Assembly: GCA_964650515.1 (NCBI GenBank)
Contig: CAZYUB010000007.1
Coordinates: forward strand, 20,837-84,836
DNA from: an uncultured Planctomycetia bacterium
GTDB lineage: Bacteria; Omnitrophota; Gorgyraeia; Pluralincolimonadales; Pluralincolimonadaceae
DNA length: 64,000 nucleotides
Reading direction: 5' to 3'
Program-made: the position numbers and the translations under genes
The notes under the pieces: generated by a model
Databases searched by the model: none
Seen by the model: the letters and a program-made list of their open reading frames with translations, nothing else
Told to the model about the DNA's origin: nothing
Shown: one piece after another, positions 5,373 to 64,000 of the stretch
How the letters are laid out: each line of letters opens with the position of its first letter
Position numbering within the stretch: the first letter of the stretch is position 1

Positions 5373-5975
5373 ATGCCCGGCTACACAAGGACAATGGAGA
5401 AGCTCATAGCGGAGTTCACGAAGCTTCCCGGCATCGGGCCGAAATCAGCCGAGCGCATAGTGATGCATATCCTGAAATCCCCGCGCGAACACGCCGCGTC
5501 ACTTTCCGAATCGATAATCAAGCTCAAGGACACGATAGGTTTCTGCAAAAACTGCTTCAACCTCAGCGAAGGCGAGGTCTGCCACATCTGCTCCGACCCG
5601 CAGAGGGACAAGACGACGGTCCTCGTGGTCGAAAGCCCGAAGGATATACTCGCAATAGAGAAGACGGGCTCCTACAGGGGGCTCTACCACGTCCTGCTGG
5701 GCTCGATATCGCCCCTGGACGGCGTAGGGCCGGACGAGCTCAAGATAAAGGAGCTCCTGCGCAGGATCAAGGCCGACAAGATAAAGGAAGTGATACTGGC
5801 CACCGACGCGGATACCGAAGGCGAGACGACAGCCCTGTATTTATCGCAACTCCTTAAAAGCCAAAGCGTTAAGACAAGCCGCATAGCTTACGGCCTGCCC
5901 GTCGGCTCCCACCTCGAATACGCCGACCAGGCGACCCTTTCGAGGGCCCTCGAAGGCCGGAATCAAATTTCTTGA
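5373..5975 (+). CDS. recR: Recombination protein RecR
   Basis: HhH motif LPGIGPKSAERI, C4 zinc finger CKNCFNLSEGEVCHIC, Toprim region. No ybaB lies between dnaX and recR. Confidence 0.95.
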   Translation: MPGYTRTMEKLIAEFTKLPGIGPKSAERIVMHILKSPREHAASLSESIIKLKDTIGFCKNCFNLSEGEVCHICSDPQRDKTTVLVVESPKDILAIEKTGSYRGLYHVLLGSISPLDGVGPDELKIKELLRRIKADKIKEVILATDADTEGETTALYLSQLLKSQSVKTSRIAYGLPVGSHLEYADQATLSRALEGRNQIS

Positions 5976-20119: not shown

Positions 20120-20177
20120 TTGACGGGGCATGCCTTAGGTGGTATACAATAGGTATGCATTGGTGTATACAGGTATA
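20120..20177 (+). promoter_or_regulatory. TTGACG-17-TATACA promoter followed by four 11-bp-phased GGTATA repeats (site A)
   Basis: GGTATA-like cores at 20141, 20152, 20162/5 and 20172. Same architecture as 23440 and 24332. Confidence 0.55.
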
Positions 20178-22620
20178 TAACAGGAACAGGCGCGGCGCAG
20201 CCCTGATCATGACGGTGGGGGTGCTCAGCATGCTCGTGCTCATAGGCGTCTCGTTCGCCGCTACTACGCAGGCCATATACAGGGAGGCAAGGAATTACTC
20301 CAATTCCGTGAAGGCGAGATACCTCGCCGAAGCGGGGATAGCGAGGGCGATAGCCGAACTCCGCTGCGGCGCGGAAGGCGCGGTATCGGACGCGGTAGAT
20401 ACGCAGGCGGAGGGCTGGTATGCCGGATATTCCGCCGTTCTCGGCGGCGGCAGGTACCAGGTGAGCGGCACGGATTGCGCGGCCAGGATATATATAAACG
20501 ATACCAACCCGAACCTCAGCGCCATGCTTGAAAACCTCACGGCGGCACTCATATCCATGGACGAGCCGCTTTCAGCCGGGGACGGCGCCGCGATAGTATC
20601 GAACCGGCCGGCCGAAGGTTATATGAGCGAGCAGGAGGTGGAAGAGCCGTTCAGGCCTTACGTTACCGTAAGGGCGTTCCGGGATACGGCCGTCTATTCG
20701 AACGCTTCGCCTTTTCCGGCAGTCCCGAGGGCGCCCGTAAACGTCAATACCGCTTCCAAGCCGGTACTTAAAGCCGTCCTGTCCGGAATAGAAGCGCTGC
20801 ATATGTGCCCGAGGTGCGGAGGCGACGGGACGATATTCGCCGCAAGCGCGTGCCCGGATTGCGGGGGGACCGGCGGCCTAAGGATCACCTCTGCGGAGGC
20901 GGATGGGCTCGCGGACTACATAATTGCGAACCGCCCGTATTCGACATGGGGCCAATTCTATAACTCGATAAAATCCTGCGCAAGTATAGGAGCGCAGGAC
21001 GCGGACCTCGTGATGGCGAACGCGAACCCGAACGCGGGATTCGCGCCCGGGGCGCGCAATTACGGCTGGGCAAGCGGCGCGGGGCGTATCGGCAAAGATA
21101 TCGACCCGGCGGACAGCGGACGCGGCCTTACAACTCACACGACGGAATTCTGTTTCAATTCGGGGGGATATTACGATATCGTCTCGACCGGGACGGTAGA
21201 GGCAGGCGCGGGGACGGTCGTGGCTTCAAGGAGCATAAGGTCTGTCGTGAAGATATTCGATATCTGGAGGCAGACAACGCAGTCGGAATTCCAGGCGGGC
21301 GCCATGAGCGGCCTGCAGAGCTATCCGGAGCCGATAGGCGCGGGCATAGCGCCGGCGGCGTTCGACGGGCAGCTGATGCTCGCGACGAACGAGGACCCGT
21401 CCACCGCCAATACGCTGCTGAGGGCAAGCTTCAACGACGGGCTCGACCTCGATTCGGCGGCGAACGCGAATATCGTCAGGGATCCGGCGAGCACCTGCTC
21501 CGTGGGGAGCGTGGCCGACGCGTCGGACCCGGGCAGCTTACTGCCGGACGGCGTCTTCGTCAACAAAAAGTCCAACGATTACATATCGTTCATGGAGAAC
21601 TGGAGCGGCACCTATAACATGGCGAAGGCGGACATGGGGACGCTTTCGCTCTGGGTCAAAGCCGTATCCGGCGGAGAGGTGTATTCGGGGATGAGCTTCT
21701 CCGGTTACGAGATAGACACGTACGGCAACGGGCATACTGACGGCGGCCCGCCGTGGGATTTTTCGCTCTTCGAGATACACCCGAGCGGCTTCATTCCCGG
21801 CTCTCCGTTCGGCGACTGGAACTGGTGGAGGCCGGGTTACGCGAACAGGACGGAGGTATGGTTCTACGAACAGTGGGACGCCGCCCTGCCCGAGAGGCCT
21901 ATCGGATTTATCGGGTTCCAGGAGGTCGGAAGCGGCATCGGCGGTGGCAACGTCTCGCAGATAATGAGCACAGGCCGCGCGAGGAAGAACTGGGCGCCGG
22001 GCACATGGCACCATGTCGTCTTCACGTATGAATTGAGCAATCCCGCCGACCCGAACTGCATGACGGGGACTAAGAAGATATACATAGACGGCGCCGAGCC
22101 CCCGCATTACGCCTATGACACGATATACCACCGGCTTAACGGCGATGTCCGCGACATTACCCTCGGCACGTCGGACATCAATAACAGCCATTCAGACGGC
22201 ACCTATATAATAGACGAGTTCAGGTCGGAGCACGCCTGCGCGACGGCCGCGCAGGTCATGGCGGAATTCGCGTCCGGCAGATATTACGATAACAGCGACG
22301 CGGAATTCACGTCGTCAGCGTTCGACGCTGGAGAAGCGCGCATCGGCACGGTATCGTGGACTGAACACATGCCCGCGAGTGTCGCCGGAGGCGATATACG
22401 ATTCGATATAGACAACGGCTCGGGATGGCTCGGCGGGTATGCCGCGCGCAACGACCCAGCGGGATCCCCCGTGGACGCGATGACCACCGGGACGAACCTT
22501 ATAAGGTATAAGGCGTATTTCGTGAATTCGGGTACGGGGCTTACCGATACGCCGGTCCTCGATGACGTGACCGTCACTTATTTGAGAAGGGCGGAAATAC
22601 TTTACTCAAGGGAGGAATGA
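20155..22620 (+). CDS. PilX/GspK-like N-terminus (RRGAALIMTVGVLSMLVLIGVSFA) fused to a large secreted domain with a Cys4 knot and a C-terminal LamG/ConA-like lectin domain
   Basis: Minor-pseudopilin-like N-terminus; CPRCGGDG..CPDCGG; WHHVVFTY..KKIYIDG LamG signature; C-terminal RYKAYF..TPVLDDVTVTY module shared with the giant ORF at 59871. Start uncertain (ATG 20155 lies inside the repeats; alternative ATG 20209). Confidence 0.6.
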   Translation: MHWCIQVYNRNRRGAALIMTVGVLSMLVLIGVSFAATTQAIYREARNYSNSVKARYLAEAGIARAIAELRCGAEGAVSDAVDTQAEGWYAGYSAVLGGGRYQVSGTDCAARIYINDTNPNLSAMLENLTAALISMDEPLSAGDGAAIVSNRPAEGYMSEQEVEEPFRPYVTVRAFRDTAVYSNASPFPAVPRAPVNVNTASKPVLKAVLSGIEALHMCPRCGGDGTIFAASACPDCGGTGGLRITSAEADGLADYIIANRPYSTWGQFYNSIKSCASIGAQDADLVMANANPNAGFAPGARNYGWASGAGRIGKDIDPADSGRGLTTHTTEFCFNSGGYYDIVSTGTVEAGAGTVVASRSIRSVVKIFDIWRQTTQSEFQAGAMSGLQSYPEPIGAGIAPAAFDGQLMLATNEDPSTANTLLRASFNDGLDLDSAANANIVRDPASTCSVGSVADASDPGSLLPDGVFVNKKSNDYISFMENWSGTYNMAKADMGTLSLWVKAVSGGEVYSGMSFSGYEIDTYGNGHTDGGPPWDFSLFEIHPSGFIPGSPFGDWNWWRPGYANRTEVWFYEQWDAALPERPIGFIGFQEVGSGIGGGNVSQIMSTGRARKNWAPGTWHHVVFTYELSNPADPNCMTGTKKIYIDGAEPPHYAYDTIYHRLNGDVRDITLGTSDINNSHSDGTYIIDEFRSEHACATAAQVMAEFASGRYYDNSDAEFTSSAFDAGEARIGTVSWTEHMPASVAGGDIRFDIDNGSGWLGGYAARNDPAGSPVDAMTTGTNLIRYKAYFVNSGTGLTDTPVLDDVTVTYLRRAEILYSREE

Positions 22621-22623
22621 CAG

Positions 22624-23469
22624 ATGAGATACTGGATGATATCGATTGCGCTGGCGCTCATGATCGTGAATACGGTATCGGCGGAGACGGGATCGGCCGT
22701 CGAGGGCTATAGCCCCGCGGTTCCGCTGCCTTCAAAAATGCCCGCGGAAGCCGGGATAAAGATATCGAAAGCCGCGATAGATTTTTCCGGCGGTGAATAC
22801 CGCGTAAAAGTCAGCGGCAGCACCGGCCTTCCCGACAAGGCGAGGATATACGTCTTCCTGAAGAAGGGGGAGTTTCCGCTGGACTGCAAGATCGCGCGCG
22901 CGGAAGGAGGCAGGTTCTCGGTAGAGCTCGGGCCGTTCCGGGTAAAACTGCCGATAGGCATATATAATGTGGAGGCGTCGCTGACGGCGGCGAGAGCATC
23001 CGGCGCGAAAGACATATACCGTCTCGTGGCCGGTAACCCCGAAGACGCGGTAAAAGAGGAAGAGTCCAGCAGGGCCGCGGTCTCGGCAAGCCTGGCTTCT
23101 GTCAGCGCGCTGTATGATGAGCTAGAGCAGAAGCGCGCGCAATACAAGGACAGTTTCGACCCGGCTGAATGGAGGAGATGGTCGGAAGGGTGGACTGCCC
23201 GCCTCAGGAACGAACAGCAGGCGGTCGATAACAACATAAAACCGCTGTTGGCCGGCGATTATTCGGGCCCCGGCCAGGCGCTTTCGCAGCTGATAAGGGA
23301 CCTTGACCAGCTCGGAAGGGTGTATTCGTCCGAACTGGACGGTGGCGGTATCAAGGATGCCTACCCTTATGCCTTCAGGGACCCCGCGCAGCTCAGGGCG
23401 GTCATCAACGAAGGCCTTAAAAATAGCAAAAAAGTCGTATTGACAAACTGTGGCCTAAATGGTATATGA
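22624..23469 (+). CDS. Secreted hypothetical protein
   Basis: Signal peptide; no recognisable motifs; 3 nt after the PilX-like gene. Confidence 0.5.
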   Translation: MRYWMISIALALMIVNTVSAETGSAVEGYSPAVPLPSKMPAEAGIKISKAAIDFSGGEYRVKVSGSTGLPDKARIYVFLKKGEFPLDCKIARAEGGRFSVELGPFRVKLPIGIYNVEASLTAARASGAKDIYRLVAGNPEDAVKEEESSRAAVSASLASVSALYDELEQKRAQYKDSFDPAEWRRWSEGWTARLRNEQQAVDNNIKPLLAGDYSGPGQALSQLIRDLDQLGRVYSSELDGGGIKDAYPYAFRDPAQLRAVINEGLKNSKKVVLTNCGLNGI

Positions 23470-23505
23470 ATGGTATACTAATGGTATTAATTGGTATAGT
23501 ATAAT
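23440..23505 (+). promoter_or_regulatory. TTGACA-17-TATATG promoter with four GGTATA repeats at 11/11/10-bp spacing plus TATAAT (site B)
   Basis: GGTATA at 23461, 23472, 23483 and 23493; TATAAT at 23500-23505. Confidence 0.55.
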
Positions 23506-23520
23506 CCCACACGAAAGGAG

Positions 23521-24276
23521 GTGAAAAGATTGAAATATCTGATCGCATTGTTGGCATGCATGTTCATATTCGCGGCTTCTCCCGAGGCCCACGCAGTCCT
23601 GAATTGGGCGGGAGAGGACACCGACGCGCCTTCAAACGCGTTGAACTGGAGCTACGGGTTCTCGCAGGGAGGCGACACGGTAGAGCTGGTCACGACGCTG
23701 GACGGCAACTGCGCGCCTTCGGTAACCACCGAAGCGCATTCGGGCGCCGAATCGGTCAAGTTCCACTGGACCCACACGAAGGACACGGTCAACTGGGGAA
23801 CAAGGACAGCCTTGCAGGTTGGAAGCGACGGCAACGGCGGAGACAGCCTAGGCACCTCGATGATGTTCCACGATATCTCAACGGCGAACAACCTGACCTT
23901 CTGGGTCAAGGGCGCGGTTGGCGGGGAACAGTTCAGGGTCGCCCTGAACAGCGGCTGGGAAGGATCGGCGTATCCGACCGACCAGACGAACCAGCTGCTC
24001 GTGAGCGGAGTAACAAGCTCATGGCAGCAGGTAGTGATGCCCCTGTCGGGATTCACGTATGATTTCCAGTATTCGGAGAATCCCGGCCCGATCGACCTGG
24101 CCCATTTGACGGGCGTCAGGTTTGTCATAGAGTCGGGCGAGCCGACCGGCGAAGGGACGGTGTATATCGATGACATCTCGTTCGATACGCAGACGGTCCC
24201 GGAACCCGCGAGCCTTCTTTTACTCGGCTCCGGCTTGAGCGGCATGTTGGTCTTTGTAAGGAAGCGTAAAGCATAA
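23521..24276 (+). CDS. PEP-CTERM-anchored secreted protein with a carbohydrate-binding-module-like beta-sandwich domain
   Basis: C-terminal VPEPASLLLLGSGLSGMLVFVRKRKA (PEP motif, TM segment and basic tail). FWVKGAVGGEQFRVAL motif shared with 5 other proteins in the window. Start may be TTG 23530. Confidence 0.75.
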   Translation: MKRLKYLIALLACMFIFAASPEAHAVLNWAGEDTDAPSNALNWSYGFSQGGDTVELVTTLDGNCAPSVTTEAHSGAESVKFHWTHTKDTVNWGTRTALQVGSDGNGGDSLGTSMMFHDISTANNLTFWVKGAVGGEQFRVALNSGWEGSAYPTDQTNQLLVSGVTSSWQQVVMPLSGFTYDFQYSENPGPIDLAHLTGVRFVIESGEPTGEGTVYIDDISFDTQTVPEPASLLLLGSGLSGMLVFVRKRKA

Positions 24277-24331
24277 GCTCTCGTCCCCCAACGAGAAGGA
24301 TCCGTCCGTCTCCCGAATCCTTTACGGCAGC

Positions 24332-49097: not shown

Positions 49098-49933
49098 GGC
49101 GCTAGTATGTCCGCTATGTTCTTTTCGCTTGCTTTGAATATATAGTACCCGGCAACGAAGACCGTTATTGATATCACCGAAGCTATCGTGATGGAAAGCA
49201 GGTCCGGCGCGCAGTTATGCAACAGCGCCTTCCTGTAGCCGTCGAGGATCCCGGCCATCGGGTTAAGGAAATAATACGGCAGCAGCGCCTTGTCGACCAT
49301 GCCGACCGGGTATCCGACGGGCGAGGCGAGCATCCAGACCTGGAGCAGTATGGGCATCGCGCTTTGTATGTCGCGGAAATAGACGTTCAACACCGAGACG
49401 ATAAGGCACACGCCTATCGTGAACATCAAATGCACCGCAAATACCGGGACCACGTACAGGGCGTTTATCCCCACCGGATAGCCGTAAAGCGCGAATACCG
49501 CCGCAAGCAGCGCGGAAGATACCATGAAGTCCGCGAGCGTCGCGAGCACGGAGCCGAGCGGCACGGTTATCTTGGGGAAGTTGATCCTCGTTATCAGGTT
49601 GAAATTGGAGTTGAGGCAGTTGACCGCGAAACCCACCGAGGACGAGAAGAATATCCACGGGACTATCGCGGTGAAAGCGAAGACCGGATACGGCGCGCCT
49701 TCCGACTGCACGCCAGCGACCTTCGAGAATACGACGGTGAACACCGCCATCGTCATCAGCGGGTTGATTACGGCCCACGCGGCCCTGAGGTACCTTTGCT
49801 TGTACCTTTGCTTGAGGTTGACGAGGCCGAAGGCGATTATGAGCTCGTGCCAGTTCCTGATGCTTGATAAGAGAGAAAATGGGTTAGGCATTTTGATGTA
49901 ATTCATTATATTACAAATATATGCGGGGTTCAA
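49094..49933 (-). CDS. ABC-2 type transporter permease (Wzm/TagG-like)
   Basis: 6 TM segments; ABC-2 family pattern. Confidence 0.8.
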   Translation of the reverse strand: MNPAYICNIMNYIKMPNPFSLLSSIRNWHELIIAFGLVNLKQRYKQRYLRAAWAVINPLMTMAVFTVVFSKVAGVQSEGAPYPVFAFTAIVPWIFFSSSVGFAVNCLNSNFNLITRINFPKITVPLGSVLATLADFMVSSALLAAVFALYGYPVGINALYVVPVFAVHLMFTIGVCLIVSVLNVYFRDIQSAMPILLQVWMLASPVGYPVGMVDKALLPYYFLNPMAGILDGYRKALLHNCAPDLLSITIASVISITVFVAGYYIFKASEKNIADILAP

Positions 49934-52688: not shown

Positions 52689-53273
52689 ATGCCAAGAAAA
52701 CCCAGACATTTGGTTGATAACGGTTTTTATCATATCATGAGCAGGGGCCACAACAAGTGTGAGCTGTTTTATTCGCGAAAGGATTACGAGAAGTATAAGA
52801 ACTTAATCGTTGAATATAAACAAAAGTTTCCTTGCGATATCTACCACTATTGTTTTATGCCGAATCACGTCCATATTGTATTAAAAATAATACGCGGAGA
52901 TGATCTACCGGAACTCATGCAGCGGATTAATCAGGGTTATGCTCGGTATAACAAGAGACTGCGCGGAACAGTCGGAAATCTATTTCAGGGGAGATATAAG
53001 GGCCTTATCATCGAAACGGAGGGGTATTTACTGGAGTGCGGCAGATATATAGAAAGAAATCCATTAAAATCAGGATTAGAGAGCAACCTGCTGCGGTATC
53101 CTTTTTCCAGCTTCAGTTTCTATGTGAAAGGGGATAGAGATGAAATATTGACTCCAAACCCGCTGTATTTAGAGTTGTCCCGCTCCGAAGAGGAGAGGAG
53201 GAGGATTTATGCAGAGTATGTACTCAAGGAAAGGATGGAAGAGCATGTTAAGAGCATTAACTCAGGATCATAG
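52689..53273 (+). CDS. tnpA: IS200-like / REP-associated tyrosine transposase (HUH Y1)
   Basis: HUH motif PNHVHIV with upstream YHIMSRGH and catalytic Tyr region (RYIERNPLK). Confidence 0.85.
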   Translation: MPRKPRHLVDNGFYHIMSRGHNKCELFYSRKDYEKYKNLIVEYKQKFPCDIYHYCFMPNHVHIVLKIIRGDDLPELMQRINQGYARYNKRLRGTVGNLFQGRYKGLIIETEGYLLECGRYIERNPLKSGLESNLLRYPFSSFSFYVKGDRDEILTPNPLYLELSRSEEERRRIYAEYVLKERMEEHVKSINSGS

Positions 53274-53443
53274 CGCACCATTTAGGGGCAAGAGCTGAGG
53301 GTGTCCCCCCGGAGGATGGCTCCTTCGTATTTTTTTGTTGACAAGTTATTGTGATTATGATAACTATAATACAAAATATATAAATCATAAGAATGGCAGT
53401 TATGGTAATTACAATAACTCTGTGAGGGAAGAAGCTCTATAAT

Positions 53444-53713
53444 ATGGGCCTAAAGCAGAAGCTTATATCCGCGCAGGAGATCATCAAGAAGTACGGCATA
53501 ACCTACCAGACCGTCAACCACTACACGAATTTCGGGCTTATCAACGTAATCACCAAGAAATCGAACGTCCGGCTTTACGACGAGGAAGAGGTGGACCGCC
53601 GCCTCACGAAGATAATCCAGCTCGCCGGAGCGGGATTCCCGCTGCGCCTTATCAGGAAGACGCTCAACGACGAGCTCGCGGTGAAGGTCAACACAGGGAC
53701 GGGTGGCGCATGA
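53444..53713 (+). CDS. MerR-type HTH domain-only protein
   Basis: ISAQEIIKKYGITYQTVNHYTNFGLI; ATGA overlap with the downstream ATPase gene. Confidence 0.55.
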   Translation: MGLKQKLISAQEIIKKYGITYQTVNHYTNFGLINVITKKSNVRLYDEEEVDRRLTKIIQLAGAGFPLRLIRKTLNDELAVKVNTGTGGA

Positions 53714-54579
53714 GCTACTTCAAGATACTCGGATTGGAGAAAGAGCCGTTCTCGACAAGCCCCGACCCTGAGTTCTTCTACCAGTCGCCGGAGCATAAGT
53801 CGGCGCTTTACCGGCTGCGCATAGCCATAGAGCTCAGGAGAGGGCTGAGCTTAGTTCTCGGAGATGTCGGGACCGGCAAGACGACGTTGAGCAGGAAACT
53901 CTCGCAGCTTTTGGCCGAAGACCCGGGCCTCGTGATGGCGATGGTCCTTAATCCCGTATATGAATCTGAAAAACAATTTTTAGCGGACCTTTCGGAGCGC
54001 TTCCATATTGTGGTGGATTCGGGGAATGGGAGCGCTCCAACGTTATTGGACTACATGAAGTCGTTCGAGAAGTTCCTGTTCGAGAAGGGAGTGCAGGAGG
54101 ACAAGACGATAGTCCTGCTCATCGATGAATCCCAGAAGCTCAGCGACCCGTGCATGGAGATCCTGCGCGCGCTGCTGAACTACGAGACGAACGAGTACAA
54201 GATCCTGCAACTCGTGCTTATGGGCCAGATGGAGCTCCTGCCGCGGATAAGCAGGATAAACAACCTCTGGGACAGGATTGCGGTCAAGTATTTCATAAAC
54301 CCGCTCGAGGAAGACGAGGTCCGGGAGCTTATAAATTTCCGCCTGCATAAGGCGGGGTATGTCTCGAGAGAGCCGCTCTTCGATGATGCGGCCGTAAGGG
54401 CGGTCTTTAACCATACGCAGGGATATCCGCGCAAGATCGCGATGCTCTGCCACGACGCGCTCGAATATACCGTGATGTACAACAAGCACTGCGTCGACAG
54501 GCAGGTCATACATGACCTTATCCAACGCGAGATGAAAGCGGCGCAGGCATTCCGCTATGTCTCGCAGGCGGCGGGCTGA
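53710..54579 (+). CDS. ExeA/GspA-like AAA ATPase (AAA_22; resembles PEP-CTERM-locus secretion ATPase subfamily)
   Basis: Walker A GDVGTGKTT, Walker B LLIDESQ. About 290 aa, no peptidoglycan-binding tail. Confidence 0.6.
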   Translation: MSYFKILGLEKEPFSTSPDPEFFYQSPEHKSALYRLRIAIELRRGLSLVLGDVGTGKTTLSRKLSQLLAEDPGLVMAMVLNPVYESEKQFLADLSERFHIVVDSGNGSAPTLLDYMKSFEKFLFEKGVQEDKTIVLLIDESQKLSDPCMEILRALLNYETNEYKILQLVLMGQMELLPRISRINNLWDRIAVKYFINPLEEDEVRELINFRLHKAGYVSREPLFDDAAVRAVFNHTQGYPRKIAMLCHDALEYTVMYNKHCVDRQVIHDLIQREMKAAQAFRYVSQAAG

Positions 54580-57927: not shown

Positions 57928-59115
57928 ATGAGGATAAGCTTCGCGGTATTATACGCGTTGGCCATAATAGTCCCGACGGCGCTCTTGGCGTATTTCGGCC
58001 TGCTGGCGGTGCGCAGCGAGAAGTCGATCGTCGAGAGGAACATGATGCAGAAATACGAGGCGATGGCAGGCCTCGTGGAAGGCGAGTTTAATAAGGCGCT
58101 CTCGGAGTCGCAGAAGGACCTGCTCGATAACCCGAAATACGTCGAGCATATGATAATAGAGCAGTCGGCTATATTCAAGGAGGACGTCGCGATACTCGAC
58201 CTGAACGGCAAGTCGCTCAGCGACGAAAAGGGATCGAAACCGGTCTTCGTAAAGCAGGTAAATGGATTTCCGTACCAGATCGCGGTATACGAGCGTTACC
58301 CGGTGGTCCTAAGCAAGATAAACGAAAGGCGGCAGAACCTATCCTTATATATCGGCATCATATACATATCAGCGTTCATGATATTAAGCGGGGCGTTCGT
58401 CACGCTCTGGGCGCTGTCGAGGCAATGGAACCTAGCGCACTTGAAGAACGAGTTCGTCTCGCACCTCGCGCATGACCTGCGCAGGCCGCTGACCTCGATA
58501 CGCATGTTCTCCGAGATGCTCAAGACCGGCCGTGTCGCGGACGACGGGAAGAGGGTGGAATATTACGGCATAATATCGAACGAGAGCGAGAAGCTCACGC
58601 TGCTCGCTAACAATATACTCGATTTCTCGCGCATAGAGATGGGGCGCAAGAATTACAGGATAAAGAAGGAAGACATCGCGCGCATAGTCAACGAGACGGT
58701 GGACAGGTTCAGGTCGTATATGGTCGACGTCCCCCGCCAGGTCTCGGTGGATATCGAGGAAGGCCTGCCGCCGGTCAACGCCGACGAGAGCGCTATATCG
58801 CAGGTCGTGATGAACCTGCTTACGAACGCGGCAAAATATTCCTCGCAGGACAGCATCATCAGCGTGAAAGTCGCGCGGACGGACAGGAACGTCGCGGTCA
58901 GCGTCGTCGACCACGGCATAGGCGTCCCGAAGAACGAGTTAAAGAGGATATTCAGGAAGTATTATCGCGTCGAGCAGGACAAGGTCTCAGCTACAGAAGG
59001 CAGCGGACTCGGGCTGACGCTTGTCAAATATATCGCGGAAGCCCACGGCGGGCAGATCCGCGCGGAGAGCGAGGAAGGGAAAGGCAGCAGGTTCACGCTG
59101 ATATTGCCTATATAA
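57928..59115 (+). CDS. Sensor histidine kinase (2 TM segments, periplasmic sensor, HisKA + HATPase_c)
   Basis: H-box LAHDLRRPLT; N, G1 and G2 boxes (NAAKYS, DHGIGV, GSGLGL). Confidence 0.88.
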   Translation: MRISFAVLYALAIIVPTALLAYFGLLAVRSEKSIVERNMMQKYEAMAGLVEGEFNKALSESQKDLLDNPKYVEHMIIEQSAIFKEDVAILDLNGKSLSDEKGSKPVFVKQVNGFPYQIAVYERYPVVLSKINERRQNLSLYIGIIYISAFMILSGAFVTLWALSRQWNLAHLKNEFVSHLAHDLRRPLTSIRMFSEMLKTGRVADDGKRVEYYGIISNESEKLTLLANNILDFSRIEMGRKNYRIKKEDIARIVNETVDRFRSYMVDVPRQVSVDIEEGLPPVNADESAISQVVMNLLTNAAKYSSQDSIISVKVARTDRNVAVSVVDHGIGVPKNELKRIFRKYYRVEQDKVSATEGSGLGLTLVKYIAEAHGGQIRAESEEGKGSRFTLILPI

Positions 59116-59116
59116 T

Positions 59117-59797
59117 ATGCATAAGATACTTGTAGTCGAAGATGACAAGAACATCCTGAAGGGGCTAGTCGACAACCTCGAGATGGAGGGCTATAAGGTC
59201 GTGACGGCTTCGGACGGCGAGGCCGCGCTCAGGAAAGCGAAGGAGGCCGCGCCGGACCTCGTCATACTGGATATCATGATGCCGAAGATGAACGGTTTCG
59301 ACGTATGCAGGCAGCTCAAGGCGAAGGGCAGCACGACGCCGATCATCATACTGAGCGCGAAGGCGCAGGAGGCCGACAAGGTGCTTGGCCTTGAGCTCGG
59401 CGCCGACGACTATGTGACCAAGCCCTTCAGCCCCAGGGAGCTGCTGGTGCGCGTTAAGGCGGTGTTGAGGAGGGCGGGCACGGCGGCGAAGGTCAAGGAC
59501 GTATATGACCTCGGCGGCATCAGGATAGATTTTAACAAATACCTTATATATAGAGGAAGCAAAGAAGAGAAGCTCACCGCGGCGGAATACAAGATATTGA
59601 AACTACTTATTGCCAACGAAGGTGAGCCGGTCAGCAGGCACACGATACTGGCGGAGATCTGGGGCGAGGATGTGACATCCCGCACGGTCGATACCCATAT
59701 CTGGAGCTTGCGAGAGAAGTTGGAAGAGGATCCGGGGAAGCCGAAGCATATCGTTACGGTGCACAGGATAGGGTATAAATTCTTGACAAGTTCTTGA
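59117..59797 (+). CDS. OmpR/PhoB-family response regulator
   Basis: Receiver domain (DD, D54 in LDIMMP, K) plus winged-helix domain (Trans_reg_C). Confidence 0.9.
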   Translation: MHKILVVEDDKNILKGLVDNLEMEGYKVVTASDGEAALRKAKEAAPDLVILDIMMPKMNGFDVCRQLKAKGSTTPIIILSAKAQEADKVLGLELGADDYVTKPFSPRELLVRVKAVLRRAGTAAKVKDVYDLGGIRIDFNKYLIYRGSKEEKLTAAEYKILKLLIANEGEPVSRHTILAEIWGEDVTSRTVDTHIWSLREKLEEDPGKPKHIVTVHRIGYKFLTSS

Positions 59798-59799
59798 CA
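59780..59799 (+). promoter_or_regulatory. Perfect direct repeat TTCTTGACA x2 with 11-bp periodicity (OmpR-family-type box candidate)
   Basis: 59780-59788 and 59791-59799, overlapping the response regulator stop codon and 72 nt upstream of the giant ORF. Confidence 0.45.
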
Positions 59800-59870
59800 G
59801 TATATTGAGATGGGGATGACAACAAAATACGAAGGATATGGCATGCTTGTAGCAGACAAAGGAGCTTACA

Positions 59871-62800
59871 ATGAATAAATCCGGTTACCGGTTTACTACG
59901 GTTGTATTGAGCTCGATACTTCTGCTTCTGAGCAGTGCCTATCTTTACATGGTATGGGCGGTGGAGACGAAGGCGTGGGATTTCGCGACGGCCTCGGATT
60001 ATACCGTCTATAAGGGCGACGGCACCGAAGATACCTCAAATACGGATATTATAATCGAGGGCGGGGTAGCCAAACTTGTATCGAGGACGACACAGATAAG
60101 CGACGATACCCAGGCCGAATATGATACCGGCGCGTATTCCTCGACATCTCCGCAGGGGCAGGACGTTTCGCTCATGCTTACGAAAAGCGGCTCGACCTAC
60201 AGCACCTCGGGTACATTCACATCCCGTGTTTTTAACGGCGCCGCAGGAAATACGTGGCAAAGGCTCTCCGCCTCACTGCAAAGCCGCGTTAATATGACAG
60301 GGCTTAACTGGACAAAGGTGGCAGGAAATCCGACCTATGCTAATGCGGTAATCTATTGGGTATATACGGGATGGTCGGACGATGGGCCAGGTATGCCTTG
60401 TGTAATCAAGGACGGCGCAGGCTATAAGGCCTACTGGACCGATTCCATCTATCGTGTTAACACCAGGTTAGGAGGTCCGGCAACATCAGATGACGGTATA
60501 ACCTTCACAAAAGTCCAGGATGTCTGCCTTGGGTTGGGCGCGGCGGGCAAATTTGACAATACCTATATCCAGTCACCCTGCGTCATTAAGGATGATACCG
60601 AGAGCGACCCGGCAAAAAGATATAAGATGTGGTATGGCGGATACGCGACCATAGGTGTCGCAGCCTGGAGGATAGGTTATGCCACTTCTGCCGACGGGAT
60701 AACATGGACGAGACAGACCGGCCCCAATACAGGCGGATCCGTGATCGACATAGGGGTAGCGGGAGACGCGGACAGCACGGGCGTTTATTTCCCGTGGGTC
60801 ATCAAGGACGGCTCGACCTACAAGATGTGGTATATGGGCACGAATGGTATAGGGTATCACCTGATGTATACCTGGTCGACAGACGGGGTAAACTGGTGCG
60901 ACGAATACGGCGCGTCCAATAAAAGAATAGCCATGTATAGCGGAGAAAACCGGTTCGACCTTTACCAGCATTATTATCCATGCGTGATCAAAGATGGTTC
61001 GCTTTATAAGATGTGGTATACAGGATACGCCGCCGGCGCATCCAGCAACGCGACCCTTGCCAGTTTCTACCAACGCATCGGTTATGCCATATCTTACGAC
61101 GGGATAAACTGGACGACGATAAACGGGGCACTGACTTCAGGATGCGTTATTGACCGCAGTACCGGATCTTGGTTTGACAGCAACTGGGCCGCGATGCCAT
61201 GCGTCATAAAGGAGGAAGACGGTTCTTATAAAATGTGGTATGCGGGTTATTATGGTTCCAATCGTCGGATAGGCCTTGCCACAAGCGCGGTAGATACCGC
61301 TGCCTCTACCGCGGTACGTTTCCAGGTCCGTTCAGGCGCCTCGGCCAGCTTGACCGGAGATTTCGTAGGCCCGGACGGCACAACATCGTCATATTATATT
61401 ATAGACAATGCTTTGCCTCCTCCCCATGGCCAAGGTTACAACACCTTGTATTGGAATACGGACAGCGTGTATTTCCCTAAGAGCGCGGCGCTTATCAACG
61501 TTCCCGGAAAGTTTAGCGTAACCGACCAGTATGTCCAGTACAGGGCATATTTTGACGGTGCCGCCGACGGCTCGCTCACTCCTACGGTAGATTGGGTCGC
61601 TTTTGAAGGAACAGGCGCCACAGGGTTTGATAACACGCTGGGAGATTTTAATAAAGGAACGCTTGCGGACGTAACCACGACTTATTCCGCGGACGGACAG
61701 GAGCCCTATATCGGCCTCGCGAAACAGCCGAACGGGCTGTATCATCCGTCCGGCACTTACACAAGCGCGGTATTCGACGGCGGCGCGGACGCCGATTGGG
61801 ATTCTGTATCATGGTCGGGCGGGAGCCAGGCGATAAGCCCGCCGGAACCCGGCCTGGTAGGACTGTACCATCTTGACGGGAATGCCGACGATTCATCCGG
61901 CAGGGGAAACCACGGGACAGCCAGCGGGACCGTTTCCTATGATACGACGGTAAAGAAATCGGGTTCGGCATGTTTTATAGGCAACGGGAACGGCTATATA
62001 ACCCTCCCGGCAACGCTCTATGAGTTTAAGGCGATGACGGTCTCGGCGTGGGTATTTTTTAACAGCACCGACACAAGCCCCGGGGGGCTTGTTGTATCAA
62101 GCTACCAGACGCCCACTTATGACAGCTTTTATTTATCTGCTTATCCGTATTACGTTTCCGCCGTAATAAAAGACCTAGGAAATGCGAGCCAAAGAAGTAA
62201 TACTATCTACTCCACACCGACGCCTTTTGGCGAATGGCATCATGTGGCGTTCACATGGGACGGCACGCCAAATGTCAATTCCCTTAAGATATATATGGAC
62301 GGCAGGGAGCAGATAAGCAAAAGCTATGACTCGCCCAGCATTGTTTTCAGGTGTATACGCAATTTTACTTCGATACCGATACATATAGGGCATTACTATT
62401 ATAGCGCTGCGCCGGCAACGCATTATTATTTTAAAGGCAAGATAGACGAAGTGGCTATCTACGACAGGGCGCTTTCGTCCGATGAGATAGACCTGCAGTA
62501 CAAGCGCGCCGCCGACATAAAATTCCAGTGCCGCTCAGGAGATGCGAATCCGCCCACAGGGAATTTCGTCGGCCCGGACGGGACGATATCAAGTTATTAT
62601 GCGACTTCAGGCGGCTCGACTTTCGGGAGCGAGATACCAACCGGCCGCTATTTCCAATACAGGGCATATTTTGAAGGGGCCGGCGCTAATACCCCCGCCC
62701 TGAAGGATGTGACGGTATCATACAATTCGGCCTCTTTCACGGATGACACAAGGACGGAATTCGACCTGGGCAGCTATGACAATTCTACCACCAGATGGTA

Positions 62801-64000
62801 TGGGGACCAGATAAGCCTTACATGTAAACCGCAACCGTTCCCCCTGGCAATAGATAGTGCGGAGACCGGCCTGCTCGCGCTCCTGCATATGGACGGAAAC
62901 TGGAACGACTCGTCAGGCAATGGAAACCACGCGACAGCACCAACCAACGTTCCGTACTTTACAACGTTTGCGAAAGTAGGGACTCAAGCCGGAGCGTTCT
63001 TTGGTGCCCACTACGCAACATTGCCTAATCTGGACCTTCCGGGATCGTCCACTATAGAATTCTGGGCCAATGACTCATACACCTTTAACTCCCATAATTC
63101 GTGTGAGCTTTACAGCGATTATAATAGCGTAACGGCAAAGGCCCAGCATCGCATATATACAACATCCTCCAACCAGCAGATAAGATTTAGCCAATACCAT
63201 ACGGACGGGTCTGCTTTGACCCTGGCTACTGTTCCAAGAAATCGCGGATTCGACACCGTATGGCACCATATAGCGGTCGTAAGGGATGACGCCGCGAAGA
63301 CGGTCGTCCTGTATGTAGACGGCAAACCCGAAAAGGCGGACAGTTATGCCGGTAAAGAAGTCGTCTCGGGCGCAACGGCCGGTAATGAAACCATAGGCAG
63401 GCTAGGAGACGTCGCGCAGAACTATGCGTACATGATCATGGACGAACTCGCCGTATATGACCGCGCGCTGACGCCTGAAGAGATCGCCCGGCACGCGGGT
63501 ATCGGCTACCCGCTACACGGCACTAATACCTTTACATCACGGACAATGGATGCCGGCCTGAGCGTAACATGGAATGATATACTTTGGAAAGAGAAAGTCC
63601 CGGGGTACGGTAACGAATTATCGGCTGAATCGACGCAGAGGGAGCTCACGTCCGAAGCGCCGGGCATAAAGGGTCTCTGGCATATGAACAACGTATGGGA
63701 TGATTCCTCGGGAAGCGGCCGCAACGGCCTTGCCCAGGGAGACGCTACTTTCGATGCCGCAGGAAAGAAGATAGGCAGCGCGTGCGGGATCTTTGACGGG
63801 ACAGGCGACTATGTCCAGGCGAGCTTAATAAACCTCGGTGACATAAAGACGGTGGAGTTCTGGGTAAATGTCACGACGAACACCCGTCCGATAATAGAGA
63901 TCCTTAACGATATGGTATATATATCGTCAGATTCCAGCAATAGGATAATAACGACAGGGTTCACGAGTCCGGTCGTATACATAAACGGAAACCAATATTC
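59871..64000 (+). CDS. Giant secreted/surface protein, 3'-partial (at least 1376 aa): N-terminal signal anchor, five PCVIKDG..YKMWY blade-like repeats (beta-propeller, GH-like fold), three LamG/ConA-like lectin domains, two FVGPDGT..YRAYF..TP.L.DVTV.Y modules
   Basis: Verified codon by codon that the frame has no stop from 59871 to the window end. The track omits it because it has no stop codon. AAAGGAG ribosome-binding site 7 nt upstream. Confidence 0.85.
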   Translation, partial: MNKSGYRFTTVVLSSILLLLSSAYLYMVWAVETKAWDFATASDYTVYKGDGTEDTSNTDIIIEGGVAKLVSRTTQISDDTQAEYDTGAYSSTSPQGQDVSLMLTKSGSTYSTSGTFTSRVFNGAAGNTWQRLSASLQSRVNMTGLNWTKVAGNPTYANAVIYWVYTGWSDDGPGMPCVIKDGAGYKAYWTDSIYRVNTRLGGPATSDDGITFTKVQDVCLGLGAAGKFDNTYIQSPCVIKDDTESDPAKRYKMWYGGYATIGVAAWRIGYATSADGITWTRQTGPNTGGSVIDIGVAGDADSTGVYFPWVIKDGSTYKMWYMGTNGIGYHLMYTWSTDGVNWCDEYGASNKRIAMYSGENRFDLYQHYYPCVIKDGSLYKMWYTGYAAGASSNATLASFYQRIGYAISYDGINWTTINGALTSGCVIDRSTGSWFDSNWAAMPCVIKEEDGSYKMWYAGYYGSNRRIGLATSAVDTAASTAVRFQVRSGASASLTGDFVGPDGTTSSYYIIDNALPPPHGQGYNTLYWNTDSVYFPKSAALINVPGKFSVTDQYVQYRAYFDGAADGSLTPTVDWVAFEGTGATGFDNTLGDFNKGTLADVTTTYSADGQEPYIGLAKQPNGLYHPSGTYTSAVFDGGADADWDSVSWSGGSQAISPPEPGLVGLYHLDGNADDSSGRGNHGTASGTVSYDTTVKKSGSACFIGNGNGYITLPATLYEFKAMTVSAWVFFNSTDTSPGGLVVSSYQTPTYDSFYLSAYPYYVSAVIKDLGNASQRSNTIYSTPTPFGEWHHVAFTWDGTPNVNSLKIYMDGREQISKSYDSPSIVFRCIRNFTSIPIHIGHYYYSAAPATHYYFKGKIDEVAIYDRALSSDEIDLQYKRAADIKFQCRSGDANPPTGNFVGPDGTISSYYATSGGSTFGSEIPTGRYFQYRAYFEGAGANTPALKDVTVSYNSASFTDDTRTEFDLGSYDNSTTRWYGDQISLTCKPQPFPLAIDSAETGLLALLHMDGNWNDSSGNGNHATAPTNVPYFTTFAKVGTQAGAFFGAHYATLPNLDLPGSSTIEFWANDSYTFNSHNSCELYSDYNSVTAKAQHRIYTTSSNQQIRFSQYHTDGSALTLATVPRNRGFDTVWHHIAVVRDDAAKTVVLYVDGKPEKADSYAGKEVVSGATAGNETIGRLGDVAQNYAYMIMDELAVYDRALTPEEIARHAGIGYPLHGTNTFTSRTMDAGLSVTWNDILWKEKVPGYGNELSAESTQRELTSEAPGIKGLWHMNNVWDDSSGSGRNGLAQGDATFDAAGKKIGSACGIFDGTGDYVQASLINLGDIKTVEFWVNVTTNTRPIIEILNDMVYISSDSSNRIITTGFTSPVVYINGNQY

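Follow-up and report, generated by a model that had tools for sequence, protein, structure and literature searches.

A conserved four-unit array of TTGACA half-sites upstream of large-protein genes in Omnitrophota, a candidate operator of the adjacent OmpR/PhoB-family regulator

Introduction

Omnitrophota are uncultured, very small and probably host-dependent or predatory bacteria that carry some of the largest genes known. Their large and giant surface proteins are thought to mediate attachment or predation, and the control of the giant genes is not addressed in the literature that we searched. How might such a gene be switched on? The question is raised by one locus in a 64,000-nucleotide stretch of an Omnitrophota genome (contig CAZYUB010000007.1; hereafter, the window), in which a gene for an OmpR/PhoB-family response regulator is followed directly by the 5' part of a gene for a large secreted LamG-domain protein. 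At the junction of the two genes the 9-mer TTCTTGACA occurs twice, at 59780-59788 and 59791-59799, with an 11-bp offset and AG between the copies. An earlier interpretation from the letters of the DNA (the sequence-only reading) regarded this direct repeat as a candidate autoregulatory or target site of the adjacent regulator. We show below that the repeat is one part of a four-unit array that is conserved directly upstream of large genes in Omnitrophota, and that the adjacent regulator is its most probable ligand.

Results

The repeat belongs to a four-unit array in 11-bp phase

The two identical 9-mers lie exactly where the sequence-only reading placed them, and the TGA stop codon of the regulator gene (59795-59797) falls inside the second copy, the local stretch being GGGTATAAA-TTCTTGACA-AG-TTCTTGACA-GTATATTGAG. 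Taken alone, the pair is not significant, because 23% of 300 dinucleotide shuffles contain at least one perfect 9-mer repeat at offset 11. The pair is real, and the site extends beyond it: four units, not two, follow one another in 11-bp phase at 59783-59823 with the hexamers TTGACA, TTGACA, TTGAGA and ATGACAAC, of which the 9-mers represent units 1 and 2 (Table 1). Over the four hexamers TTGACA is matched at 22 of 24 positions. None of 100 shuffles reached 19 of 24, and even 18 of 24 was found at a mean of 0.02 per shuffle. In this genome unit 1 also codes for the last residues F-L-T of the regulator.

The array is unique in its surroundings. Neither strand of the window contains another two-unit site (at least 11/12) or three-unit site (at least 15/18), and periods of 7-10 and 12-15 gave no array in the same 64 kb. 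Only two weak dimer-like sites (10/12), at 24321 and 53338, came out of the hexamer scan and the nhmmer search, and nhmmer detected no second strong copy across 267 kb of Omnitrophota loci. No Rfam family matched in 59000-60500. An operator of the OmpR/PhoB type consists of at least two direct half-sites of about 6-7 bp that are spaced 10-11 bp centre to centre on one helix face, and the array has this architecture; the sequence-only reading had rightly recognised the 11-bp geometry of this operator type, and an OmpR-family regulator does adjoin it.

Table 1. Positions of the array, its promoter, the genes around it and the corresponding elements of related loci (window coordinates unless a locus is named)
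Feature	Position	Strand	Details
Array unit 1, ttcTTGACAag	59780..59790	+	hexamer 59783-59788; TTGACA in 11/12 lineages, CTGACA in one
Array unit 2, ttcTTGACAgt	59791..59801	+	hexamer 59794-59799; TTGACA in 11/12 lineages, TTGACG in one
Array unit 3, ataTTGAGAtg	59802..59812	+	weaker half-site; hexamer 59805-59810
Array unit 4, gggATGACAAC	59813..59823	+	promoter-proximal half-site; hexamer 59816-59821 plus conserved AC
Predicted -10 hexamer, CATGCT	59842..59847	+	exactly 20 bp past the unit-4 hexamer; inferred position
Ribosome-binding site AAAGGAG and start codon ATG of the large LamG gene	59858..59873	+	AAAGGAG at 59858-64; ATG at 59871
Deletion junction, TTC microhomology	59780..59782	.	one clean break in the gapped alignment with relatives
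Membrane histidine kinase, 395 amino acids, cognate	57928..59115	+	HisKA + HATPase_c; no PAS or HAMP
OmpR/PhoB-family response regulator, 226 amino acids	59117..59797	+	acceptor Asp in motif VILDIMMP; tail LTSS
Large secreted LamG-domain gene, 5' part, likely target	59871..64000	+	Laminin_G_3 2.9e-37; runs past the window end
Between regulator and array, L088, L091, L214			nothing
Between regulator and array, L089			23S_rRNA_IVP gene
Between regulator and array, L090			small open reading frame and Y1 transposase gene
Between regulator and array, L213			five toxin-antitoxin-like genes, 2.4 kb
Pho-box-like arrays	L016:12298-12345; L024:12877-12920; L015:17697-17740		upstream of pstS (PBP_like_2) in L016 and L024, of a porin gene in L015

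The array is conserved upstream of large genes across Omnitrophota

The sequence-only reading held that a lack of further copies together with a lack of conservation in relatives would speak against a regulatory site. Further copies are indeed missing from the rest of the window, and the array is strongly conserved in the orthologous loci. Twelve distinct Omnitrophota loci, whose regulators are 66-94% identical, carry one array each in a gapless common layout, always on the coding strand and immediately before a LamG, DUF2341 or giant gene. The 12 arrays align without gaps as [c]TTGACA-atTTc-TTGACA-attTa-TTGAgA-nGGnn-cTGACAAC-N18-TAT(g/a)cT, in which the hexamer positions of units 1 and 2 are conserved in 11-12 of 12 loci and the spacers between the hexamers are variable and A/T-rich. 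Unit 3 is weaker (TTGAGA, TTGATA, TTGACA, TTGGCG or TTTACG), with an invariant TT and a G and an A that are kept in 11 of 12 lineages each. In unit 4, all 12 lineages have GACA and the next A, 11 of 12 have the T in front of GACA, 11 of 12 have the closing C, and the phase never changes. The distance from the array start to the start codon of the big gene is 88-153 bp in the ten loci that were laid out. The LamG ortholog in L001 has 3547 amino acids (aa), and the alignment block that covers array, leader and the opening 11 bases of the LamG gene shows 95% nucleotide identity.

The gene order around the array is conserved as well and runs MerR, AAA_22, hypothetical, secretin, TPR, kinase, regulator, zero to five variable genes, array and big gene. 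The distant relatives (66-71% regulator identity; L088, L089/L011, L090, L091, L212, L213 and L214) keep this synteny with exactly one array each, and their big genes encode a LamG protein of 2372 aa, a DUF2341 protein of about 850 aa followed by genes of 6327-6618 aa, or a single protein of 9706 aa. The separation of regulator and array among the relatives ranges from none to five genes and up to 2.4 kb (Table 1). Because this interval varies, the array is tied to the 5' end of the big gene and not to the 3' end of the regulator gene.

As a negative control we used 80 regulator loci listed by a search with the regulator, four of them orthologs and the rest paralogs from other phyla. Among the matches listed, the 1.34 Mb around these OmpR-family regulators from many phyla contained TTGACA arrays of at least 19/24 at the four Omnitrophota orthologous loci only, and the only other matches were two Planctomycetia loci with TTTACA-type arrays.

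A -10-like hexamer lies at a fixed distance from the array, with no -35 at normal spacing

Downstream of the array, a -10-like hexamer is found exactly 20 bp past unit 4 in all 12 loci, reading TATACT (three loci), TATATT (two), TATAGT, TATGGT, TATGCT (two) or CATGCT (three); the window also offers TATGGC at 59837-42 as an alternative candidate. Transcription is predicted to start near 59854, which would place the four hexamers at about -71/-66, -60/-55, -49/-44 and -38/-33. A sigma-70 scan found no -10 partner at 16-18 bp for any hexamer of the array, in the window or in L001, the sequences 17 bp away in the window being TGAGAT and TGACAA. Ordinary promoters of the same genomes have the form TTGACA-16/17-TATACT or TAAAAT, and the only other exact TTCTTGACA of the window, at 5969, is the -35 of such a promoter (5972, TTGACA-17-TAAAAT).

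Three conventional promoter types were tried on this region and rejected. The hexamers do not qualify as sigma-70 -35 elements, with no TATAAT-like hexamer at 16-18 bp in the window or in L001. A sigma-54 promoter, TGGCAT-N5-TAGC at 59839-59853, loses its GG in L003, L004 and L009 (TGATAT); the regulator has no sigma-54 activation domain, and the start would fall inside the ribosome-binding site. A MerR-type long-spacer promoter composed of unit 4 and the 20-bp spacer fails on the spacer, which has no dyad and is not conserved.

A deletion created the overlap with the regulator gene

Why, then, does the array of the window overlap the stop codon of the regulator gene? In the close relatives (L001, L003, L005 and L009; regulator identity 88-94%) an extra gene stands between the regulator and LamG genes. 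It encodes a Rotamase_2 peptidyl-prolyl isomerase (PPIase) of 274-290 aa where called (L001-L007), and the TTGACA array is intergenic, between the PPIase gene and the LamG gene. In the gapped alignment, the window up to 59781 corresponds to the end of the relatives' regulator gene and from 59782 to their array, so that 934 bp of L001, 898 bp of L005 and 884 bp of L003 have no counterpart here. The deletion removed the regulator's own last codons, the PPIase gene and a GC-rich spacer, and no rotamase homolog is present anywhere in the window. The short, variable C-terminal tail of the regulator (VE, MEGK and others in relatives) has been replaced by LTSS, and the winged-helix domain is intact up to residue 222 of 226. 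The overlap of array and stop codon is thus the result of a lineage-specific deletion of about 0.9 kb, and at least one lineage can do without the PPIase gene of the locus. The junctional position noted by the sequence-only reading is accurate for this genome, where the site adjoins both genes; as for ownership, the array belongs to the promoter of the LamG gene and not to the regulator gene. A search for a terminator in the relatives, in the interval from the PPIase gene to the array, gave no T-run and no scan match, and hairpins were seen in L003 (z = -4.3, strong) and L009 (z = -2.5, moderate).

The adjacent two-component system and its paralogs

The regulator contains Response_reg (1.3e-34) and Trans_reg_C (3.4e-23) domains, and its closest homologs, from 94% down to 65% identity, all come from Candidatus Omnitrophota. 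It reaches no NCBIfam equivalog cut-off: the best model, RpaB, gives 232.3 bits against a cut-off of 330, and the PhoB models TIGR02154 and NF053854 give 209.9 bits (cut-off 296.2) and 191.7 bits (cut-off 270), respectively. By sequence, the closest solved structures are RegX3, MtrA, RpaA, the receiver domain of Bacillus subtilis PhoP, and KdpE. The kinase, judged by eye from its sequence, has two hydrophobic segments around a loop of about 110 aa. Upstream of the pair, the genes in order are Y1 transposase-like, MerR-like, AAA_22 ATPase, hypothetical, secretin and TPR.

Paralogs with 49-50% identity to the regulator are found in pst loci of Omnitrophota (L016) and Planctomycetia (L024 and L015), with kinases that contain HAMP and PAS domains and are PhoR-like in L016 and L024. 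These three loci have, beside their PhoB/PhoR-like pairs, arrays of four TTTACA/TTAACA/TTCACA units, also in 11-bp phase (Table 1), so that the same array geometry goes with relatives of this regulator. The recognition helix differs consistently by group, being TRTVDTHIW[S/N]LREK in the regulators of the present loci versus TRTVDVHI[T/Q/R]TLRKK in the pst-locus paralogs. This difference would fit the one-base difference of the half-sites, G versus T. The pst-locus arrays suggest, from their sequences, that Pho boxes of the B. subtilis type are in use in the PVC group.

Discussion

Proposed mechanism and alternative explanations

We assign the adjacent regulator as the binder of the array because their linkage is conserved, and consider it probable, at roughly 0.6, that the array and the -10-like hexamer form a promoter that depends on activation by two bound head-to-tail dimers of this OmpR/PhoB-family protein. 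In this model the membrane histidine kinase would phosphorylate the regulator, which would recognise the operator cTTGACA-N5-TTGACA-N5-TTGAnA-N5-nTGACAAC, with one half-site per helical turn, as the upstream part of the LamG or giant-gene promoter. The consensus units 1 and 2 would nucleate binding of the two dimers, and the weaker units 3 and 4 would be filled cooperatively. With no -35 element at 16-18 bp and with unit 4, at about -38 to -33, lying 20 bp before the -10-like hexamer, the regulator at unit 4 may stand in for the -35 contact, recruit RNA polymerase and turn on the gene of the large secreted protein. Regulator binding, activation, the transcription start and the signal are inferences. 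Several observations weigh against this scheme. The -10 candidate of the present clade, CATGCT, is poor. The half-site does not differ from the sigma-70 -35 consensus, which leaves room for a role related to RNA polymerase. Regulator and array are both invariant in the 12 loci, so there is no covariation and the link between them is one of synteny. Finally, L215 encodes a regulator of 72% identity and has no array within 10 kb; its gene order is different, and it also has no big gene within 10 kb.

An operator that is genuine and conserved could nevertheless serve another factor, either a different OmpR/PhoB-family regulator, such as a Pho-type paralog, or an unrelated protein. Omnitrophota do possess at least one paralogous regulator whose half-sites are nearly the same (four TTTACA units in L016), and both the assignment of the adjacent regulator from synteny and the array-less L215 would agree with such a factor. 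We regard it as unlikely: in each of the 12 loci that contain the big gene the array accompanies this two-component system, position 3 of the half-site is an invariant G in units 1 and 2 where Pho-type arrays have T, A or C, and the recognition helices differ between the two groups of regulators. Less probable still is that the hexamers are simply sigma-70 -35 elements, serving as tandem or alternative promoters or as a docking site or sink for RNA polymerase with no response regulator involved. TTGACA does act as the -35 of other promoters here, namely the one at 5972 and those of the MerR operons (TTGACA-16/17-TATACT), but the scan for partners at 16-18 bp was empty in the window and in L001, the conserved -10 keeps its 20-bp distance from unit 4 in every locus, units 1-3 lie 31-53 bp from it, and four units kept strictly in 11-bp phase by A/T-rich spacers are characteristic of tandem winged-helix binding and not of promoters.

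Of the two roles that the sequence-only reading offered, that of a target of the adjacent regulator has become the best-supported one through the conserved linkage and the geometry, and autoregulation has found no support. The overlap of the array with the 3' end of the regulator gene suggested that role, as might the weak 10/12 dimer-like site TTGACAagttaTTGTGA that, in this clade, overlaps the -35 at 53338 belonging to the operon itself. However, the array follows the regulator gene, and the operon possesses a single-hexamer promoter of its own, at 53338 ahead of the MerR-like gene. The PPIase gene in close relatives or 2.4 kb with five genes in L213 intervene between regulator and array. 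The overlap itself is the product of a deletion, and the second half-site at 53338 is kept in close relatives only and is absent from distant lineages, which makes autoregulation of the kinase-regulator operon by the array very improbable. A duplication by chance or slippage without function can be regarded as effectively refuted. Its one argument is the expectation of 0.26 per window for a 9-mer repeat at offset 11, against which stand a four-unit array that the shuffles never reached and its gapless conservation in 12 lineages despite diverged intergenic sequence around it.

The model of activation by the adjacent regulator can be extended in a more speculative direction, to which we give little credence at present. 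One dedicated kinase-regulator pair in a secretin or type II secretion-like locus might be a phylum-wide on-switch for large and giant surface-protein genes, in which sigma region 4 and the regulator would contest the four -35 look-alikes and RNA polymerase would be held or mis-positioned until the phosphorylated regulator displaces it or re-registers it by 3 bp. If true, such a contest between sigma factor and regulator would be a mode of control distinct from ordinary class II activation.

Other elements of the window and related loci

The secretin/kinase/regulator operon is headed by a promoter at 53338-53370 (+), located before the MerR-like gene (53444-53713), that consists of TTGACA, a 21-bp spacer with the dyad GTTATtgtgattatgATAAC, and TATAAT; its counterparts lie at about 4196-4228 in L001, about 3099 in L003 and about 4184 in L005, and distant lineages have a plain TTGACA-16/17-TATACT at the operon head. 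Judged by its sequence, the 53338 promoter resembles those under MerR-type control in its over-long spacer with a dyad. A Y1 (IS200-like) transposase gene (52689-53273) precedes the MerR gene, and occupies the same position in L001, L003, L005 and L088. GC-rich palindromic elements, GGTGTCCCCCCGGAGGATGGCTCC and CGTGTCCCCAAGTGACACGTCCCC, recur between genes of these loci, with occurrences at 53297-53325 in the window, at about 11570-11595 in L001, at 11537-11560 in L005 and at 2764-2790 in L009; one palindrome variant that was searched for is absent from the window. The transposase and the palindromes may be a REP/RAYT-like pair.

The sole other three-unit 11-bp array found de novo in the window is unrelated and reads AAATGGTATAT GAATGGTATAC TAATGGTATTA ATTGGTATAGT at 23458-23501 (+; region 23441-23510). 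It runs into a TATAAT (23501-06) that lies 15 bp before the ribosome-binding site of an open reading frame (ORF) at 23521-24276. The product of this ORF is a PEP-CTERM protein that weakly matches CBM_11, and the array could be the operator of a different winged-helix regulator. Among secretion-related genes, an 821-aa protein (20155-22620) has weak T2SSK and LamG matches, and the ATPase at 53710-54579 gives 170.6 bits with the model of the XrtA/PEP-CTERM system-associated ATPase, below the cut-off of 324.5, which hints at a link of the secretin locus to PEP-CTERM sorting. The LamG protein of the window lacks four codons close to the N-terminus (a 12-bp gap at 59881/59882) relative to L001 and L005, just before a signal-peptide-like hydrophobic stretch. 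A perfect 12-bp tandem duplication, two copies of GTACCTTTGCTT at 49790-49813 in a region under long ORFs, is probably an in-frame duplication of four codons.

A pattern scan of metagenomes used N10 in place of the real N11 before the GACAA of unit 4 and could not match real arrays. Its at least 120 unrelated matches were mostly tandem repeats and a recurrent TTGACAGAATGTTGACGCAAAT... element, none of them with the Omnitrophota regulator. A recurrent and well-conserved element, TTGACAGAATGTTGACGCAAATTTTGAATTTGCAGACAATTTGCAGACAATTTTGAGGAAAGAAATAAGCCAAA, was seen on many metagenome contigs (L093, L094, L107, L111-L113, L120, L122 and about 25 more), at least one of which is labelled human gut.

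Comparison with known systems

The closest likeness is to the core site of B. subtilis PhoP, for which Liu and Hulett in 1998 reportedly described the motif TT(A/T/C)ACA located at -60 to -20. The two share four coding-strand TTnACA direct repeats with an 11-bp period that reach, in the present case by prediction, the -35 region of a promoter with no normal -35, and binding by two OmpR/PhoB-family dimers, as there, is what we propose here. The present half-site, however, carries G as its third base, and the regulator falls outside the PhoB/PhoP equivalogs. A PAS domain, present in PhoR, is missing from the kinase, and in place of phosphate genes the likely target is a gene for a large secreted LamG protein within a secretin locus. 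Because regulator, kinase architecture and target all disagree, the array is not a Pho box, and we rejected membership of a Pho regulon: the PhoB models score below their cut-offs, the kinase has only HisKA and HATPase_c, and the likely target is a LamG gene, whereas true Pho loci in related bacteria combine pstS and TTTACA arrays with HAMP+PAS kinases (L016 and L024).

In Escherichia coli, the CTGTCAT of the pho box reads toward the -10. The E. coli PhoB box and the present array share the 11-bp period, a TGTCA core that is the reverse complement of TGACA and, as proposed here, a class II geometry in which the -35 is replaced. They differ in orientation, TTGACA reading toward the -10 in the Omnitrophota loci, and in the regulator, which scores 210 bits against the PhoB cut-off of 296. 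More generally, OmpR/PhoB operators are built of 11-nt direct repeat units, commonly two or four, with six conserved and five variable nucleotides as in PhoB and PhoP boxes, in which strong core units nucleate binding and weaker neighbours are filled cooperatively (PMC2275107). The PHO boxes of Streptomyces coelicolor PhoP follow the same plan, with 11-nt units, usually two or four, and nucleating core units, and the deletion of one nucleotide from a unit nearly abolishes binding (PMC2275107); their unit, G(G/T)TCAYYYR(G/C)G, is different, as are the organism and the regulon. The cyanobacterial RpaB/HLR1 system shares with the present one the top NCBIfam model of the regulator, RpaB, and a half-site, (G/T)TTACA(T/A)(T/A), that resembles cTTGACAa (PMC6525291). 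HLR1, however, is one pair of octamers with a 2-nt gap and a 10-bp period (PMC6525291), unlike the four units of period 11 here, and we rejected identity with RpaB/HLR1 on the score of 232.3 bits versus 330 and on the lack of any period-10 array.

The locus itself is of a kind already described: a type II secretion-like locus with a Rotamase_2 PPIase precedes the giant genes of Omnitrophota phylum-wide (West-Roberts et al. 2023, bioRxiv 10.1101/2023.11.21.568195). Neither the kinase-regulator pair nor the operator array is part of that description, and the terms 'response regulator', 'two-component' and 'promoter' have zero occurrences in the text of that preprint and likewise in a 2026 preprint on complete Omnitrophota genomes. 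In the literature searched we found no regulatory link between this two-component system and the giant genes. The conserved 44-bp operator with its fixed promoter geometry, together with one kinase-regulator pair, thus provides a first concrete hypothesis for the control of large and giant genes. No cultivation is needed to test it, since recombinant regulator and a short DNA fragment would allow in vitro work, and the array can serve as a sequence tag for co-regulated genes in complete genomes.

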